From Candidatus Komeilibacteria bacterium CG11_big_fil_rev_8_21_14_0_20_36_20 (GTDB taxonomy: Bacteria > Patescibacteriota > Patescibacteriia > UBA1558 > GWA2-36-10): a stretch of 64,000 nt of DNA. Under the pieces are notes generated by a model. The model was given only the letters and a program-made list of their open reading frames with translations, was not told where the DNA came from and did no database searches. Position numbers and translations under genes: made by a program. How positions within the stretch are numbered: position 1 is the first letter of the stretch; every line of letters starts with the position of its first letter. Below are positions 46,909 to 56,935 of the stretch, one piece after another. The stretch covers positions 31,296-95,295 of the forward strand of contig PCWQ01000007.1 of assembly GCA_002787405.1 (NCBI GenBank), read 5' to 3'.

Positions 46909-46919
46909 AAAACAAAATC

Positions 46920-46950
46920 AACCTCGAAGGTTGTTTCAACCTTCGAGGTT
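46920..46950. repeat. REP-like hairpin: 13-bp perfect stem (aacctcgaaggtt / aaccttcgaggtt) with a 5-nt loop, immediately 5' of the RAYT gene
   Basis: Inverted repeat verified by eye. Related copies of aaccttcgaggtc lie at 46341..46355, 46686..46700 and 47023..47036. Confidence 0.8.
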
Positions 46951-47033
46951 ATAAATCAAAAATAAAAAAACCGCTTTTCTTCATATGTAAAATAATATCC
47001 AAATCTTACAATATTGTCAACCAACCTTCGAGG

Positions 47034-50019: not shown

Positions 50020-50117
50020 AAAATAAAACTTAATAATATGACCTCGCTAGATTTTGTGAATTTCTAACGGGGTTCATAATACTTGTCTATTGTATTATAT
50101 CTGCTTATATTTGACAA

Positions 50118-50147
50118 CACCCTTCCCCCTTTACAGGGGGAAGGGTG
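50118..50147 (-). terminator. candidate intrinsic terminator hairpin downstream of the surface-protein gene
   Basis: A 12-bp GC-rich stem (cacccttccccc / gggggaagggtg) with a 6-nt loop lies about 45-70 nt 3' of the stop at 50191. On the minus strand it is followed by a T-rich stretch. Confidence 0.5.
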
Positions 50148-50190
50148 AATTGTCTATCTCTAATTACTTATTGCAAGTAAAAAGATTTTC

Positions 50191-53100
50191 TTAACCTGAC
50201 CAGCTAATAGTATAACTTGGAGTTGACGTAGTGACAGCTCCTAAGCCGGATACGAGGTATCCATTATACCATTGTCCGTATTCTGTAGCGGTAGCTCCTG
50301 TTGTGTCTATACCTCTACCTTTATAGTTGTCTGACCAGACAAAGTTACCTTGATTTAAGGCGCCCCAAGCATCAGCATAGTTAGTATTAATATCTGTGGT
50401 TGGATTACCATAACCATCAGATGACGTCGAAGAAGCAGTATCACCTAACATAGCTACACTAACATTCTCTCCTGTTCCAGCAAGAGCAATAGTACAATTA
50501 TAGTAATAAGTCTCGCTAGAGCCGGCTGAAATTTGTAAAGGCTCTAATTCATCACTATGTGAAATAAGAGGATTATCAAAGGTGTAAGTATTATAGCCAC
50601 CATAGCCGTCACCTCCATCTAAATCGGTTGGATCAGCAGCAGTGCCGACAACATTACCGTCGCTATCTCTTAGATAACAACTGGTAACATTAATAGTACC
50701 ACCAGTAGCCACAGTAAGAGTAGCGCGATATAGCAACACTTCATTGCCCGAAGCATCAGCCGCCACATTAAAGGCATAAAGATCAATTGCGCCGTTAGTC
50801 AAAGATGTAGCTGCGCCTAAAGGAGCGCTGGCAGTTGAATGAGTAACAGTTGGCAAAGCTTTGTGAAGCACCATACCAGTAGTGGTTGAACCATTATAAG
50901 TCTCGGAAGTAACCACATCGTTAGAATCAACACCTGTGGTTTTAACACCATCTGTGCCGCCTAGACCAAATCTGACATCAGCGCCTGGAGTACCAGGAGC
51001 ATTATCAGCACTTGAACTAATAGTTCCTAGGTCAGCTTTAACAGTAATGGTTTTTGAACCGTCTTGAGGAATGGTTAAAGTGTTATTAGGAAAGTTGAAA
51101 GTATAGTATCCAGTTGATGGAATGGCAGCACTACCTAATAAAGTAGAACCGTCATATAAATACACTTTTGAGACATCCTGATAATTACCGGTAGCTGTAC
51201 CAGTAATATTACCGTCAGCCACAAAAACTTTCAATTGATCAAGATCAAGATTTTCATTAAACGCTTCCAGTCGAATATTACCAAAGGTTACTCCAGTAGC
51301 GCCGGCTCTAACAATTGCGGCGCTAGGATTGTTGTAAGTGCTAATGGTCAAAGTGCCGGCTGTGGCTACAGTCATGGTAGCACCCATGTCAGCGGTCAAA
51401 GTAACTATCCCTCTGTTTCCACTAGTAACACCATAAGCAATGACTGAAGCATTAGCTGTGGTGCTTACATCAACTAAACCAAAGATACCTACTTGTTCAG
51501 CAACAGCTCCGGTATTGACATCGGCAATCAACTGAATGGTCTTTGAAGTTCCTTTAGTAAGCACAATTGGATCATCAAAGGCAAAAGTTGAAGAAGCTGA
51601 ATCATAGCCATCGTTGTCTGCTGGGGCATCATTGACTGGACTCTTGGCTACACCACCGCTGCCAAAGACACCGTCATAAATAGTCAAGTTGGTGAAATTG
51701 GTGGAAGAGGCATGAACAACTATTGAAGTTATTCTAATATCTTCACCTGAATTTGTACCGTCAAAGTTCCAAGAACCCACTAAAACATCTTGAGCGCCGG
51801 CAATTACTGTAGCGTTGGCTGGCAAGGTGTTTCTAGTGACAGTCAAATTAGCGGCCTTAACTGTCTGGGTGTTGGTATCAACATTAGCTGCTGGGCTAGC
51901 GGTAATTGAATTACCGGTTACCTGACCAGTAGCAGTAATAGCGCTAGCTGCAGTTGCAAGTCTAGCATAAATAGTATCGTCAGTAGCCCATCCGCCGCTG
52001 ATATTCAAATTACCCATAATTGTATATTCACTCTCGCCAACTGGCAAAGTAAATGTATCCGTGAAAGCTACGGTTAAAGCATCATTGGTAATATCAGTTG
52101 GACCGGCCACAGTTACGCCATTGCTATCAACTATTTTAACTCCTTCCAAAGCATCTTCAATCTGAGCGCCAGAAGAAGAAACAATGGTTAAGGTCAATTC
52201 AGTGACGTCAATTGGTTCACCTTTAACCGTAAATTTAAAGGCGCCTAGAGTTTGGTCGCTTCCAACTGTAACATTGTCAGCACCAACACTGGATCCTCTT
52301 TCCACAGTCATATTACCATTAGCAATTTGAAATTCATTAGCGCTTAAGACTGGCTTAGTAGCAGCAGAACCAGTACCGCTATAGGTTGGGGTAATATTAT
52401 AACCATAAGTATTACCTTTTACTAATAGGTCTGTAGTTCTGTAGATACCTAAATCAACTGTTCGGGCTGAACCGCTCTCAACATCGGCTTGCACCTGATA
52501 TTGATAGGTCTGGCCTTTAGGAATAGTGGTGGCAGCAATACTAAAGTTAATATACTTACCATCAACCACACCGTCGGCGATCTTGGTACCGTCTTTTAAC
52601 AAGGCATATCCAGAAAGATCTTCACTTAAGCTGGCTGTACCTTCTTGGTAAACAGAAACCTGATTAAAGGTCACATCTTCAACTGAACCTGCTTGGATTT
52701 GGAAAGCAAAGAAAGTATAGTCCTGTTTGCCTACTTCAATGGTAGTAGAACTAGCATTGTTATAGGAACCTCTTTGAACAGTAGCTGTACCAATTGTAAT
52801 GGTATGGTTTAAAGTCTGGGTATTACCATAGGCAGGCAATGAGCCAATAACTGAACCACTACCTTTCAAAGTAATAGAAGCTAAACCAAGGGCTGGATTT
52901 TCACCAGCATAGCTGTCTAAAGAAGCAGCCATATTACCGGCTAAATAAATATATTGAGTGGTGTTGGCTGGGATGACAACATCCTTGGTAAAGGTAGCTT
53001 GGTGATTGGAGTTGAAAGTCTTTGAGTTTTGATCAAAAGGAATCATGGTGCTGCCGTCCAAAACATCAATGGTTGAAAAAGCAGCATCCTGCCCGATTCC

Positions 53101-53994
53101 ACCTCTTTGAACAACCATTGTGTCAATGGTTACTCCTTCGCTACCGGTGGTTAATTTAAGTTTGGTGAAAGGATATCTAGCGGCACCTTCAACTACAATG
53201 CCGGAAGCTGGCGTATCGCTAGCCAATGACACTGTTAGGTCGCCACCAGAAACTGGTCCACCGCCTTCACCCGGCATATAACCTGCCAGTTCTGTTTCTT
53301 CACCGGTGATTGATTCGCCGGTTGAATAACCATCTACGTTAGCCACGTCAATAACATAGTCATAACTAAAGTTATTGGCTTCAAAGGCATCAGAAGTAGC
53401 AAATGGTCGGACTGTATCGCCTTCACCGACATAATACAAATCCTCGCCCACCTGCAGCAATGTACCTTCTGGATACATAGTGCTTAAATCAGAACCAGTG
53501 GTATAGCTGGATGAAAAATAACCTGGGATAACATCTAGAACTCTAGATCCCCAATCGGCACCATACAAATCTTCAGCCACGTCTCCTGTAGGAATCCAGT
53601 GGAGTGTTCCACCCGGACCAACAGCATAAATTTTGGCTGTATTCATATGGGTAACCAATTTGGTTCCCGGTCGATAAGTCACGGCGCCGCCGTCTGCATA
53701 CAAATCCAGTTCAGCTACGTTAACTCTGACCACATTGTCAAAGTTATCATACCAAGTATTATATGTTTTTCCATCTGGGAAAACATATTTCATACCATCT
53801 GAACCAATGTAATAAACAGCTGCACCAGATTGACCTTCTAAGGCAAGCAAAGAGCCTGCTCCGTAATTACCAGCGGCTTTGGCTACTGGCGCAAAAGATA
53901 CGCCAACTGACCAAAGGGCAGTGGTAATCACCAAAGAAAATACAGCAAATTTCTTTAATAAGTGCATGTTTCTTTTTTTTAAAAAAGTCCCCAA
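50191..53994 (-). CDS. large secreted Thr/Ser/Gly/Ala/Val-rich surface protein (S-layer or adhesin-like, repeated beta-sandwich-like modules)
   Basis: 1267 aa. The signal-peptide-like N-terminus reads MGTFLKKRNMHLLKKFAVFSLVITTALWSVGVSFAPVAKAAG. Two related modules of about 90 aa are followed by more than 1000 aa of low-complexity T/S/G-rich repeats. GC content is about 45% against about 30% elsewhere. Confidence 0.7.
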   Translation of the reverse strand: MGTFLKKRNMHLLKKFAVFSLVITTALWSVGVSFAPVAKAAGNYGAGSLLALEGQSGAAVYYIGSDGMKYVFPDGKTYNTWYDNFDNVVRVNVAELDLYADGGAVTYRPGTKLVTHMNTAKIYAVGPGGTLHWIPTGDVAEDLYGADWGSRVLDVIPGYFSSSYTTGSDLSTMYPEGTLLQVGEDLYYVGEGDTVRPFATSDAFEANNFSYDYVIDVANVDGYSTGESITGEETELAGYMPGEGGGPVSGGDLTVSLASDTPASGIVVEGAARYPFTKLKLTTGSEGVTIDTMVVQRGGIGQDAAFSTIDVLDGSTMIPFDQNSKTFNSNHQATFTKDVVIPANTTQYIYLAGNMAASLDSYAGENPALGLASITLKGSGSVIGSLPAYGNTQTLNHTITIGTATVQRGSYNNASSTTIEVGKQDYTFFAFQIQAGSVEDVTFNQVSVYQEGTASLSEDLSGYALLKDGTKIADGVVDGKYINFSIAATTIPKGQTYQYQVQADVESGSARTVDLGIYRTTDLLVKGNTYGYNITPTYSGTGSAATKPVLSANEFQIANGNMTVERGSSVGADNVTVGSDQTLGAFKFTVKGEPIDVTELTLTIVSSSGAQIEDALEGVKIVDSNGVTVAGPTDITNDALTVAFTDTFTLPVGESEYTIMGNLNISGGWATDDTIYARLATAASAITATGQVTGNSITASPAANVDTNTQTVKAANLTVTRNTLPANATVIAGAQDVLVGSWNFDGTNSGEDIRITSIVVHASSTNFTNLTIYDGVFGSGGVAKSPVNDAPADNDGYDSASSTFAFDDPIVLTKGTSKTIQLIADVNTGAVAEQVGIFGLVDVSTTANASVIAYGVTSGNRGIVTLTADMGATMTVATAGTLTISTYNNPSAAIVRAGATGVTFGNIRLEAFNENLDLDQLKVFVADGNITGTATGNYQDVSKVYLYDGSTLLGSAAIPSTGYYTFNFPNNTLTIPQDGSKTITVKADLGTISSSADNAPGTPGADVRFGLGGTDGVKTTGVDSNDVVTSETYNGSTTTGMVLHKALPTVTHSTASAPLGAATSLTNGAIDLYAFNVAADASGNEVLLYRATLTVATGGTINVTSCYLRDSDGNVVGTAADPTDLDGGDGYGGYNTYTFDNPLISHSDELEPLQISAGSSETYYYNCTIALAGTGENVSVAMLGDTASSTSSDGYGNPTTDINTNYADAWGALNQGNFVWSDNYKGRGIDTTGATATEYGQWYNGYLVSGLGAVTTSTPSYTISWSG

Positions 53995-54371
53995 ACATTA
54001 TTTAATCATCTAAAATATAAGCGCTTCTGTTTGTTTTCTAAACAGAAACCAAACCATTATCTTGAGTGCCCCCAGCATACGCCGGACCGACCTTTCAGAC
54101 AACACTAAGCCAATGGGCTTATAAGTTAGTTTGATAAAAATTTTGTTTAGGAACGACTAATTAGAGCCCGAAATTGATTTCTCAACTTCAGGACTTACCA
54201 CATACCAATAAGTATATGGTCAAATCCCTAATCGCGCGCGATTTAGCGATAAGTTAGGGATAATAGCTTTCAAACTTTTTGAAAGCTAAATACCCTCAAC
54301 CTATCTGCCAACTCGACAAGCTGGATAATCGCGCTTTAAGGATTTTTTATAATTAATTATTAAACGACAAA

Positions 54372-55712
54372 TTAATTATTAATTTCCGTAACTGCAGAAT
54401 CATCGACTACTGGTTCTTCTAATTCTACTTCTTTTAATTCTACTTCATCAATCCCAACTGCAGAGGCCTCTACTGTTTCTGACTCTTCTTTTAAATTACC
54501 GTCCATATCAGCAGGAGTCGTGCTGGCTGTCTGTCCACTATCAATAGAATCCTTATTTTCTGCCTGCTTATTGTTGGATATCTGTTCTAAAACTGTTTCT
54601 GCCTCACTATTGATCTCTTTACTTTCAGAAACTTTATTAAGTGCATCTTTCAAGGCACCTTCTCCCAATAAAACCTTGGCTTCATCCAGAACAACCTCCG
54701 CTGCTCCCGGTTTTGACTTAATGCTATTAATGTTTGTTAAATCCTCTTGCTGGCCAACTGATGCATCTGTATTATTTTCTTGTTCTTCACCAGCAACATC
54801 CACCTTTTCTTTAGTGTTTTTAATTTCTGAAGACAAATCGTCAATTTCAGAGGCAATAATTTCAGTCACTAAATTTTTAATTGTTTGAGCATCCCTTTCT
54901 TCAATATAAGTTTGCGGAGTAGTACTATTAGTGGAAATCTCTTGGTCAATTACTGATTTTTTCATAGCTGATTCTACTTCTTCATGAACTTCTACCGCTA
55001 AATTGACCGCTGATTCTTTAGCTTCTTCATTAAATTTTTTAACATCATTCAACGCTTCTTTAAAAACTGCATTTTTACTCTTATTGGCTTCTTCCAATGA
55101 GCTCACTTTATTCTTAGTTTCCTTAGTAGCATCTTTAACTTTTTTAGCTAAAGAGACTGCTTCTACTGGTTTCTTCTCCTCTTTAACTATCTTCAAAGAA
55201 GTGTCAACTGCTGTGACGTCCTGTTCTAAATGGCCGACTGCCTTTTTTATTGCTTTTTCACTTTTGACAGTTTGTCCGGGTTGATCGGTTTTATTTAAAT
55301 CTTTCACAATTTTATCAATTTCTGCCAATCTTTTATTGACATGCTTAATATGAACTTCTGTCTCTCTAACCGGACTAAGAGTAACCGTTAATTCCGCTTT
55401 TTCTATTGATCTCTTAATCGGCCAAAGAACTTCACCAGGCACTGAAGCTTGAGCGGCAAAACCGACTCCTGAACCCATCATGATAATCAAAAATCCAGCA
55501 ATAACTTTACTAACCGAAGGAACAGTGCGGCGCATTACCCGACTAACAAATAAATCAACCTTTTCTGAATTGGTTAATTTTTGCGCTTTCATTAATCTGT
55601 TCTGAGCAGAGATTTCAGAAAGTAAATCATATTTAGTTGTGTCTTCCCATTTTTTATTCGGCTGTAATTCAGCTAAATTCTTTAGTTGGGAAATTTTTTT
55701 AGTTAAACTCAT
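54372..55712 (-). CDS. anti-sigma-factor-like protein (single TM; coiled-coil, acidic extracytoplasmic region)
   Basis: It lies immediately downstream of the ECF sigma gene. A short N-terminal cytoplasmic segment is followed by a TM helix (VIAGFLIIMMGSGVGFAA) and a long helical, Glu/Lys-rich C-terminus. Confidence 0.55.
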   Translation of the reverse strand: MSLTKKISQLKNLAELQPNKKWEDTTKYDLLSEISAQNRLMKAQKLTNSEKVDLFVSRVMRRTVPSVSKVIAGFLIIMMGSGVGFAAQASVPGEVLWPIKRSIEKAELTVTLSPVRETEVHIKHVNKRLAEIDKIVKDLNKTDQPGQTVKSEKAIKKAVGHLEQDVTAVDTSLKIVKEEKKPVEAVSLAKKVKDATKETKNKVSSLEEANKSKNAVFKEALNDVKKFNEEAKESAVNLAVEVHEEVESAMKKSVIDQEISTNSTTPQTYIEERDAQTIKNLVTEIIASEIDDLSSEIKNTKEKVDVAGEEQENNTDASVGQQEDLTNINSIKSKPGAAEVVLDEAKVLLGEGALKDALNKVSESKEINSEAETVLEQISNNKQAENKDSIDSGQTASTTPADMDGNLKEESETVEASAVGIDEVELKEVELEEPVVDDSAVTEINN

Positions 55713-55734: not shown

Positions 55735-56286
55735 TTATTTTTCCGTAATTTCTTTTAATTTATTTAAAGCCCTATGTAAAATAACTCGAACATTATTTTT
55801 ATCTTTTTCTATAATTTGGGAAATGTCCTCAATTGATAAATCTTCCACATAACGCAAGAGTAGGATTTCTTGATATTCTGGCTTAAGTTGAGATAACTGC
55901 CGCAATAAATTATCTGCATCTAATGACTTATCTAAATTGGTTATAGTTTTATCAGTCAAATAATTATTTGTTTCGAAGATATAATCCAAAGGTAACTCCT
56001 GTCGATTGGATCTCCGATAATGATCAATCACGGCGTTGCGAGCTATGCGGAAAATAAATGCCTGGAAATTTTTAATATGCCTCTTATCAACTAAATGCTG
56101 CCAAATTTTTAAAAAAATATCTTGAGTTAAGTCTTCTGCTATTTGCTTGTTTGATACCTTGATCATAACAAAGCGGTAGATACGAGATACATATTTGTCA
56201 TAAAAAAAGGCAAAAGCGTCAGAATCCCCGGCTTTTAATTTTAAAAAAGCTATTCTTTCTTGTAAATTGTCTTTAAAACTTTTCAT
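55735..56286 (-). CDS. RNA polymerase ECF-type sigma-70 factor
   Basis: Region 2 (EDLTQDIFLKIWQHL...ARNAVIDHYR) and a region 4 HTH (LSIEDISQIIEKDKNNVRVILHRALNKLKE) are present. 183 aa. Confidence 0.8.
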   Translation of the reverse strand: MKSFKDNLQERIAFLKLKAGDSDAFAFFYDKYVSRIYRFVMIKVSNKQIAEDLTQDIFLKIWQHLVDKRHIKNFQAFIFRIARNAVIDHYRRSNRQELPLDYIFETNNYLTDKTITNLDKSLDADNLLRQLSQLKPEYQEILLLRYVEDLSIEDISQIIEKDKNNVRVILHRALNKLKEITEK

Positions 56287-56339
56287 ATATATAGACGTAA
56301 CAACCCTAAAAATATTACATTTTTAATAATTATAAATTT

Positions 56340-56353
56340 AGCTAATATTAGCT
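56340..56353. promoter_or_regulatory. 14-bp perfect palindrome agctaatattagct in the divergent promoter between the ECF sigma gene and the HTH gene; candidate operator
   Basis: Self-complementary 14-mer verified by eye. A second 10-bp inverted repeat (catctaaaat / attttagatg, 20-nt spacer) lies at 56395..56434. Confidence 0.35.
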
Positions 56354-56619
56354 AAAAAAATAAATAAATCTTAATAATTTTTCTCTAATATAGTCATCTA
56401 AAATAAAGTGGAGCTAATTATAGCATTTTAGATGTTTTTTGTAAATGTAAATTCCCCACAAAATTTGAACTGATGATACCAAATATTAACATATTTTAGA
56501 TTATTTGTCTTATAAAAAGAGCCCTATATTTTATAAAGTTATCCACAGATATTGATAAAAAGTATAGAATATTCTATACTTAATTATATAAAATAATCAA
56601 AATATTAACTGTATATTAT

Positions 56620-56901
56620 ATGGAAAATATTATTCGTTTATCAGTATCTGAAGCAGCTAAATTGTTTGGGGTATCCACTAAAACTATTCGGCAAGCCATT
56701 AAAAAAGAGGAAATAAGATATATTGTGGTCAACGGTCGTTATAAAATAAACTTCGCTTCTTTAATGGAGTGGTCGCAACTTTCTACCCGCCGCGCTAATT
56801 TACTCAAACAACAGGGAGTTGGTCAGTATATTGATCGGTGGAAAATAAGGAATAAAAAATTCAGCCCCAGTGAAAAATTAATAAACAAAAAAACTTTCTG
56901 A
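56620..56901 (+). CDS. excisionase-family HTH (HTH_17) DNA-binding protein
   Basis: LSVSEAAKLFGVSTKTIRQAIKKEEIRYIVVNGRYKI resembles 27645..27932. Confidence 0.6.
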   Translation: MENIIRLSVSEAAKLFGVSTKTIRQAIKKEEIRYIVVNGRYKINFASLMEWSQLSTRRANLLKQQGVGQYIDRWKIRNKKFSPSEKLINKKTF

Positions 56902-56935
56902 ACAGCAGAAAGTTTTTCGAAAATGATTTATATAG

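Follow-up and report, generated by a model that had tools for sequence, protein, structure and literature searches.

What lies in the long non-coding gap in front of the gene for a very large secreted protein in Candidatus Komeilibacteria bacterium CG11_big_fil_rev_8_21_14_0_20_36_20, and what might it do for that gene? The question is raised by the window, that is, the whole 64,000-nt stretch of contig PCWQ01000007.1 analysed here, in which the surface-protein gene stands behind genes for a sigma factor and a membrane protein in anti-sigma position. All genes flanking the gap are on the minus strand, and the locus is made up as follows.

55735-56286, minus strand: ECF sigma factor gene (Pfam Sigma70_r2/r4; TIGR02937 cut-off passed)
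54372-55712, minus strand: gene for a DUF5667 membrane protein in anti-sigma position (DUF5667 match borderline, 27.9 bits against a cut-off of 27)
53968-54371: gap between the anti-sigma gene and the surface-protein gene, 404 nt
50191-53967, minus strand: surface-protein gene, encoding a secreted protein of 1258 aa with a signal peptide; ATG at 53965-53967

The 1258-aa surface protein, putatively an S-layer protein, has no relative in Pfam, NCBIfam or the PDB, and its more than 289 homologs all belong to Patescibacteria (Parcubacteria, Portnoy-, Buchanan-, Doudna- and Komeilibacteria, among others). Of 69 homologous loci, 45 have an anti-sigma-like gene upstream in the same orientation; a literature search found no paper mentioning DUF5667. 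The GC content of the surface-protein gene (0.428) is the highest among the 54 ORFs of the window, and a strong hairpin lies 3' of its stop codon, both of which would fit a heavily expressed unit. Shine-Dalgarno sequences are missing from almost all genes of the window.

A first-pass annotation had described 54001-54371 as a GC-rich, hairpin-dense leader between the anti-sigma and surface-protein genes, free of ORFs of 60 aa or more. The position was borne out, with the full gap comprising 53968-54371, and no ORF of at least 60 aa is present in it; the sole small ORF on the sense strand is a 31-aa GTG ORF inside domain B of the structure described below. The claim that GC content exceeds that of the flanking genes holds marginally for the anti-sigma gene (0.364 in the noted region vs. 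0.357) and fails for the surface-protein gene. The conserved RNA alone reaches 0.384, the window mean is 0.334, and the other intergenic gaps of the window range from 0.15 to 0.34.

Folding of both strands revealed structure beyond chance. The minus strand of the gap has a minimum free energy (MFE) of -140.6 kcal/mol against a mean of -88.4 for dinucleotide shuffles (z = -8.7; 0 of 100 shuffles as good), and the plus strand one of -95.8 (z = -5.9). In the window, the remaining three gaps of 300-420 nt gave z values of 0 to -1.5 on either strand. When 23 distinct homologs were each folded singly, all 23 gave a common architecture, and nearly all surface-gene homologs across the phylum are preceded by gaps whose sense strand is strongly structured (z from -2.5 to -18).

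This RNA is previously uncatalogued and matches no known family, and it constitutes a new family of Rfam grade. Rfam 15, which includes RNase P, SRP, 6S, tmRNA, T-box, riboswitches and the OLE, GOLLD, ROOL, HEARO and raiA RNAs, gave no match at the gathering threshold, either in the whole window or in the 12 homologous loci scanned, and permissive scans of the region and its homologs (E up to 5-10; 17 homologous loci in all scans) returned unrelated sub-threshold matches only, with no family recurring. ARAGORN identified no tRNA or tmRNA genes in the window. The earlier judgement, made by eye, that the region resembles neither tRNA, tmRNA, RNase P nor SRP RNA thus stood. No description of this RNA was found in a literature search. 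Two resemblances were considered and rejected. RNase P was suggested by GGUAAGUCC and GGCUUA, which look like P4 strands by eye, but the RNase P models yield no hit even with E allowed to reach 10. A similarity to T-box RNAs in AAUUAGGGU was discarded because the T-box model is unmatched and the gene context is wrong.

The RNA is organised into two domains, A and B, between which a variable set of P6 hairpins is located. Its elements are listed below from the 5' end of the transcript.

53987-54345, minus strand: whole conserved structured RNA, ~359 nt, bounded by the 5' strand of P2a and the 3' strand of P7 (MFE and z value, nhmmer and covariance-model matches)
54221-54345, minus strand: domain A, in which the outer helix P2a/P2b closes a junction carrying hairpin P3 and the P4-P5 arm
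54336-54345, minus strand: 5' strand of P2a, AAAUCCUUAA, pairing with UUAGGGAUUU; nine of ten pairs changed on both sides (AU/GC/UA/CG)
54330-54334 with 54234-54238, minus strand: P2b, GCGCG with CGCGC, the upstream GCGCG pairing inside the invariant AUCGCGCGCG
54309-54323, minus strand: P3 hairpin CAGCUU-GUC-GAGUUG, six of six pairs with double changes
54248-54305, minus strand: P4 (GAUAGGUUG.GGGUA / UAUCC.UAACUUAUC), enclosing P5, with compensatory changes in the RNAalifold analysis of the MAFFT alignment
54264-54288, minus strand: P5 hairpin, very variable in length among homologs
54233-54260, minus strand: invariant core UCCCUAACUUAUCGCUAAAUCGCGCGCG, including the palindrome aatcgcgcgcgatt; invariant in 11 of 11 sequences
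54222-54231, minus strand: 3' strand of P2a, UUAGGGAUUU, partner of 54336-54345
54197-54220, minus strand: P6a, from individual folds
54164-54194, minus strand: P6b, with a GAAA tetraloop, from individual folds
53987-54154, minus strand: domain B, with closing helix P7, rod P8, distal junction P9, P10, the AAAGGUCG strand, P12 and P13
54144-54154 with 53987-53997, minus strand: P7, GUUCCUAAACA with the 3' strand UGUUUGGGGAC; 96% paired, with UA/UG and GU/AU/GC exchanges
54088-54095, minus strand: junction motif AAAGGUCG, between P10 and P12; the most widely conserved element
54023-54049, minus strand: P13 hairpin GUUUCUGUUU-AGAAAAC-AAACAGAAGC, ten of ten pairs with double changes; flagged as terminator-like by a simple scan
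53968-53986, minus strand: A/U-rich spacer UUUUUUAAAAAAAAGAAAC, lacking a Shine-Dalgarno sequence and followed by the start codon at 53965-53967

The three palindromes that had been noticed in the sequence are all present and can be assigned to this architecture. The first (ttctgttt/aaacagaa), which had been placed at 54037-54060, lies 12 nt away at 54025-54047 and corresponds to P13, and the third (tagctttcaaa/tttgaaagcta, 54264-54288) is P5. The second, aatcgcgcgcgatt (54230-54243), is not a hairpin by itself and is instead part of the invariant core of domain A, which pairs with the upstream GCGCG. In a MAFFT alignment, the invariant blocks UCCCUAnnUUAUCGC-n-AUCGCGCGCG, GUUCCUAGACAA, GGCCUAU and CAGAAAGGUCG are situated between stems that vary in sequence and length. 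P4 is a long helix with conserved sequence, and P3 in most homologs is a stem of 4-5 bp with the conserved loop YYUAGUCAR. A candidate pseudoknot would join the P3 loop (YUUAGUC) to the 3' strand of P5. The P6 hairpins (54164-54220) vary by homolog in number (one or two) and length and are absent in L082, L087, L092 and L100. A GAAA tetraloop/11-nt receptor, suggested in P4 by UAUGG/CCUAAC in some homologs, was rejected, as its two key positions vary freely. P13 (54049-54023) was also rejected as an intrinsic terminator, because it is flagged in the window only, the tails of its homologs are not U-rich and its stem is an internal helix of domain B.

Compensatory changes were identified in both domains. 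RNAalifold on the plain MAFFT alignment recovered P4 and P5, with exchanges between GC and UA in four sequences and between UA and CG in two. Since MAFFT misaligns the variable stems, single-sequence covariance models of both domains were built from the window sequence, and the homologs were aligned to them by Infernal. For domain A (20 sense rows), 92.3% of alignment cells are standard pairs, a percentage inflated by the fitting of the alignment to the model, as against 80.0% after shuffling of partners and 34-47% in a slid control in which the 3' partner was moved by 1-3 columns. Double changes occur in 27 of 48 pairs, and the covariation score is 0.386, compared with 0.180 after shuffling and 0.05-0.10 after sliding. 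Domain B (18 sense rows, model R2) is 90.0% paired, a figure inflated in the same way, vs. 37-44% when slid, and has double changes in 54 of 63 pairs. Shuffles across both domains gave 74-80% pairing, and none of 500 attained the observed values, a count that is not a probability, given the relatedness of the sequences and the fitting of the alignments to the model; the weight lies instead on the slid control and on the multiplicity of pair types. Compensatory changes thus exceed the controls in both domains, and 53987-54345 is a conserved structured RNA.

The strand on which this structure acts is indicated by two further results. Model R1 and the family model R3 of domain A score 50-130 bits on the sense strand in 25 loci and at most 37 bits on the antisense strand. 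In addition, the GCGCG strand opposite the invariant CGCGC changes from C to U only, so that G-U pairs are retained, a pattern that is meaningful for RNA of the minus strand only.

To determine how widely the element occurs, 80 genome loci were collected with a protein profile of the surface protein. Searches by nhmmer with the 404-nt gap gave full-length matches directly upstream of the orthologous surface gene in 10 of these 80 loci, whose surface proteins are 36-70% identical in the best segment, and profile iterations added partial matches in five further loci with gaps of 617-700 nt. Model R2, run unfiltered on divergent 'group 2' loci, yielded only noise, and nhmmer is the sole source of their relationship. 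A context-blind DNA pattern scan with the invariant block over 241 million metagenome records recovered 21 loci, all upstream of a surface-gene homolog on the same strand and, wherever the contig extends, between anti-sigma and surface-gene homologs; the core lies 258-321 nt before the ATG in these metagenome loci. The same pattern had no matches in viral contigs. The domain A core is carried by 31 loci, always on the sense strand and immediately upstream of the surface ORF, with proteins 31-81% identical (tblastn). A single copy is present per locus, with no extra copies elsewhere in the loci, and model R3 detects domain A only in loci with the invariant core. In 14 of 15 homologs, P7 ends 16-20 nt short of the ATG. 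In L091, the closest relative, the RNA is still together with the surface gene, and the anti-sigma ORF is reduced to a tail behind a tRNA gene. The first-pass annotation had proposed that conservation of the structures upstream of orthologous surface-protein genes be sought, and they are clearly both conserved and covarying there, which supports its core idea of a structured regulatory RNA on the gene strand before the surface-protein gene. That idea was only partly supported in its detail, since the kind of element was correct and its extent was understated as a few stabilising hairpins.

The junction of domain B extends much further than domain A. In 43 of 65 homologous loci spread over the phylum, the upstream gap carries the heptamer AAGGTCG (AAGGUCG in the RNA) on its sense strand. 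Within the gaps there are 47 sense occurrences in 25.5 kb (1.84 per kb) and none in antisense, and outside the gaps in the loci the density is 0.03-0.05 per kb. Its context is constant, consisting of a helix strand, one or two bases, AAAGGUCG, a hairpin and the returning helix strand. RNAalifold on a plain MAFFT alignment of ten Buchananbacteria-type leaders recovered the AAGGUCG core, with compensatory changes in 28 of 49 pairs. The structured upstream gaps, the AAGGTCG motif and the anti-sigma synteny together indicate that sigma/anti-sigma genes, a structured leader and the surface gene form an old module. The RNA core shared throughout this module is the junction of domain B, to which one clade has added domain A.

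What, then, does the RNA do? From its position, we infer that it is a leader, and most likely it controls the production of the cell's main surface protein. With moderate confidence, we interpret 53987-54345 (minus strand) as a new cis-acting structured leader of the surface-protein mRNA that caps and protects the message and whose junctions dock a conserved partner. A cis-acting leader is favoured by the 16-20 nt spacing, the open A/U-rich spacer, the lack of a terminator or sequestering helix and the persistence of the RNA beside the surface gene in L091. Structure prediction makes the start region more accessible than the leader (0.51 vs. 0.30 unpaired) in 20 of 20 homologs. No conserved terminator was found between the RNA and the ATG in the window or its homologs, nor a terminator after the anti-sigma stop codon. 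Likewise, no helix sequestering the start region or other expression platform was found, nor a trans-acting partner of the RNA.

Transcription of this leader, presumably together with the surface-protein mRNA, might start at the AT-rich 3' edge of the anti-sigma gene, where a promoter would lie, or proceed by read-through from the sigma/anti-sigma operon. A consensus scan gave weak promoter-like sites only; a -10-like TATAAT and a shared AGTTCATT motif are seen by eye at the 5' edge. The RNA would fold into domain A (P2-P5) and domain B (P7-P13), and this compact fold would cap the 5' side of the message and end 16-20 nt before the AUG, leaving the A/U-rich spacer as an unstructured landing pad in an organism that does not appear to use Shine-Dalgarno sequences. 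For simple 5' stabilisers, one hairpin suffices and 360 nt are not needed, so that stabilisation alone fails to explain the conservation. The invariant unpaired AUCGCGCGCG of domain A and AAAGGUCG of domain B may serve as a docking site for a conserved trans-acting partner, which would more likely be a protein than a metabolite. Such a partner bound beside the ribosome footprint, protection from ribonucleases with stabilisation of the mRNA, or both could set the output of surface protein and couple it to the neighbouring ECF sigma/anti-sigma envelope module. Mimicry of a Shine-Dalgarno sequence by the junction AGAAAGG, which approximates the complement of the 16S 3' end, was retained as no more than a weak lead; the genes of the window are without such sequences, and the invariant part includes UCG.

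A possible, still tentative extension is that the element is the first representative of a hitherto undescribed class of large sensory leader RNAs, in which the ancient AAAGGUCG three-way junction, joined by domain A in one clade, directly senses the status of the envelope and gates translation of the main surface protein. What it senses could be surface protein awaiting assembly, the anti-sigma/sigma module or a precursor of the envelope. If this were true, an ECF sigma/anti-sigma circuit would have the leader as its RNA partner, in bacteria whose regulatory repertoires are minimal.

It is rather unlikely that the RNA instead ends at P7 and a U-run, as a stand-alone non-coding RNA or as the 3' UTR of the sigma/anti-sigma operon, acting in trans or within a ribonucleoprotein, with adjacency to the surface gene being synteny only. 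In the window, as in roughly half of the homologs, P7 is followed by a run of 4-6 U, and TTTTAAAA, just before the ATG, is by eye a possible -10 box of a short-leader mRNA; taken together, these features mean that the RNA could end before the surface-protein mRNA starts. Its size and complexity, which resemble those of the OLE, GOLLD, ROOL and raiA-type RNAs, and the lack of a terminator between the RNA and the anti-sigma stop codon also agree with this explanation. However, the U-run is missing in L002, L003, L004, L038, L085 and L089, and P7 closes a 168-nt multi-branched domain, unlike the hairpin of an intrinsic terminator. The distance to the start codon has been maintained while the sequences diverged, the RNA is found once per locus and never elsewhere, and the domain B core follows the surface gene throughout the phylum, all of which argue against this explanation.

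The combination of invariant nucleotides in junctions and internal loops with covarying stems is the usual signature of an aptamer, and the position fixed just upstream of an ORF and a AAAGGUCG junction kept across classes of the phylum would suit a metabolite- or ion-sensing riboswitch as well, possibly a tandem one with domains A and B as aptamers, that responds to an envelope-related ligand and controls the surface-protein gene. We consider this quite unlikely. There is neither a conserved terminator/antiterminator nor a start-sequestering helix that could act as the expression platform, a length of ~360 nt is far above the size of known aptamers, most lineages do without domain A, and the Rfam riboswitch models are unmatched. 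Moreover, the regulated gene is structural, neither metabolic nor a transporter gene, so that no ligand suggests itself.

Function at the DNA level, with the palindromes AATCGCGCGCGATT and the AT-rich TTAATAATTAAT repeats binding dimeric regulators or the ECF sigma holoenzyme as a promoter or operator, is very improbable for the element as a whole. An ECF sigma gene adjoins, AT-rich repeats and -10-like hexamers occur at the 5' edge, and AATCGCGCGCGATT is a perfect, invariant 14-bp palindrome, whose invariance leaves it without covariation of its own and makes it uninformative, taken alone, about an operator. Yet most of the conserved helices are kept by compensatory, G-U-preserving changes that are meaningless in duplex DNA, hairpins vary in length at fixed sites, and strand asymmetry is strong in folding energy, in covariance-model score and in the AAGGTCG counts (47 sense vs. 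0 antisense). An operator at the 5' edge may well coexist with the RNA and would leave the 360-nt element unexplained. Although inverted repeats fold on both strands (plus-strand z = -5.9), the idea that the hairpins cluster by chance or derive from a decayed mobile or repeat element is effectively refuted by the conservation and covariation data, given that 0 of 100 shuffles fold as well, that one syntenic site recurs in 31 independent loci with proteins 31-81% identical and that extra copies are absent from the loci and from viral contigs.

The cis-acting leader can be compared with several known systems. Structured 5' leaders precede the S-layer or major outer-surface proteins in the mRNAs of Lactobacillus slpA, Thermus thermophilus slpA, Aeromonas vapA and E. 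coli ompA. These leaders, 100-200 nt long, have one or two hairpins each, and their conservation does not reach beyond the genus; that of Thermus slpA is a binding site for regulators. Like them, the present RNA is a long non-coding stretch directly before the gene of a secreted envelope protein, with a presumed role in message protection and tuning of translation. Unlike them, it has ~360 nt, two domains with 48 and 63 model pairs (27 and 54 of them double-changed) and invariant junctions, and several classes of the phylum retain its core motif.

With OLE, GOLLD, ROOL, HEARO and the raiA motif, large ornate RNAs whose functions are unknown or newly discovered, the RNA shares a length of more than 300 nt, a multi-domain organisation, heavy covariation, conserved junctions and discovery by comparative analysis in uncultured or unusual bacteria. 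In contrast to these RNAs, whose covariance models are unmatched here, it is fixed at 16-20 nt from one start codon and tied to one gene family and a sigma/anti-sigma module. It is also similar to ribosomal-protein leaders, the thrS operator and riboswitch aptamers in acting in cis, as proposed, in having conserved loop and junction nucleotides amid covarying stems and in abutting the ribosome-binding region, but it is much larger, its domain A is lineage-specific, and no molecular mimicry, ligand, binding protein or expression platform was found. The intercistronic stabiliser or processing elements of pap, puf and cggR-gapA are simple hairpins or cleavage sites; the present element is comparable to them in lying, terminator-free and on the same strand, between a low-abundance regulator pair and a high-abundance structural gene.

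To our knowledge, bacterial RNAs of more than 300 nt with dense covariation and no assigned function are very few, and every one of them has opened up new biology. The source organism belongs to the Candidate Phyla Radiation, whose members are mostly uncultured and whose gene regulation and cell envelope are almost unexplored. In these bacteria, the RNA is tied to a recurring three-part module of an ECF sigma factor, an anti-sigma factor and a huge secreted protein without known domains, and through this tie it marks a probable major envelope protein together with its control element. Even if it were merely a stabiliser, it would still be a new Rfam-grade family useful for annotation. The shared AAAGGUCG junction provides a testable handle and a search key for annotating the genomes of Patescibacteria.

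The surface-protein gene (window 50191-53967, minus strand) has the highest GC content among the 54 ORFs of the window (0.428; the window as a whole averages 0.334) and encodes a secreted protein of 1258 aa, for which more than 289 homologs have been identified, all confined to Patescibacteria. Searches of Pfam, NCBIfam and PDB returned no relative of this protein; its fold is unknown, and it may be the major envelope protein or form an S-layer. The 171-nt gap 3' of its stop codon (window 50020-50190, minus strand; -56.5 kcal/mol, z = -8.5) contains a perfect G+C-rich hairpin, CACCCUUCCCCCUGUAAAGGGGGAAGGGUG, with no clear U-tract found downstream of it. The hairpin probably either terminates the transcript of a highly expressed gene or stabilises its 3' end. 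Elsewhere in the window, two short gaps (46909-47033 and 2520-2624) reach z = -3 to -4.5 on both strands; they probably form terminator hairpins, with the neighbouring genes in convergent or tandem order. The 649-nt gap 5' of the ECF sigma gene (window 56287-56935) is very A/T-rich (GC 0.20-0.26), is predicted to be moderately structured on both strands (z near -3), and is likely the promoter region of the sigma/anti-sigma operon.

At the 5' edge of the structured RNA that precedes the surface-protein gene, TTAATAATTAAT repeats span the anti-sigma stop codon (window 54346-54400 and homologous positions, e.g., L001:3580-3610), and a -10-like TATAAT/TATAAA box lies 5-8 nt upstream of P2a, the outer helix of domain A, in most homologs. 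The motif AGTTCATT at this edge is common to the window's clade and to Buchananbacteria-type leaders. These elements may constitute a promoter. A Shine-Dalgarno sequence was found at almost none of the 54 ORF starts in the window, the upstream regions of which are merely A/T-rich, whereas AAGAAAGGAAA stands ahead of the ATG in the Buchananbacteria surface-gene homologs.

Within domain A, the conserved loop of hairpin P3 (YUUAGUC) repeats the 5' strand of hairpin P5 (YUUAGYU), both on the minus strand of the window (54309-54323 for P3, 54278-54288 for the P5 strand) and in homologs, and could therefore compete for the P5 3' strand (RRCUA). The two elements might pair alternatively or form a pseudoknot, or the repeat might be a binding site present in duplicate.

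In the closest relative, locus L091 (81% protein identity), the region upstream of the RNA has either been rearranged or belongs to a metagenome contig that is chimeric.

Features upstream of the RNA in L091
Within 75-1000: chemoreceptor-like ORF fragment, tRNA gene and anti-sigma tail
704-776: tRNA gene
750-998: anti-sigma ORF remnant, acidic C-terminal tail only

A longer, diverged form of the leader occupies gaps of 617-700 nt 5' of the surface gene in five loci (L005, L007, L008, L009 and L029), where its variant core reads GCUUAUUGCGCGCGCAUUAAGGG and CCAGCAAGGUCGA. It was found by nhmmer profiles, and single-sequence covariance models did not detect it in these loci.

Across the 80 Patescibacteria-wide loci fetched by protein profile (L001-L080), the gaps 5' of nearly all surface-protein homologs gave z = -2.5 to -18.

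Example upstream gaps of surface-protein homologs
L045:3773-3979
L075:3794-4000

AAGGTCG, the DNA form of the domain B junction motif, occurs on the sense strand in 43 of 65 upstream gaps, in a shared helix-motif-hairpin-helix context. The strong structure of these gaps, together with the motif in its common context, points to a leader RNA superfamily spanning the phylum, of which the window's RNA would be one branch.
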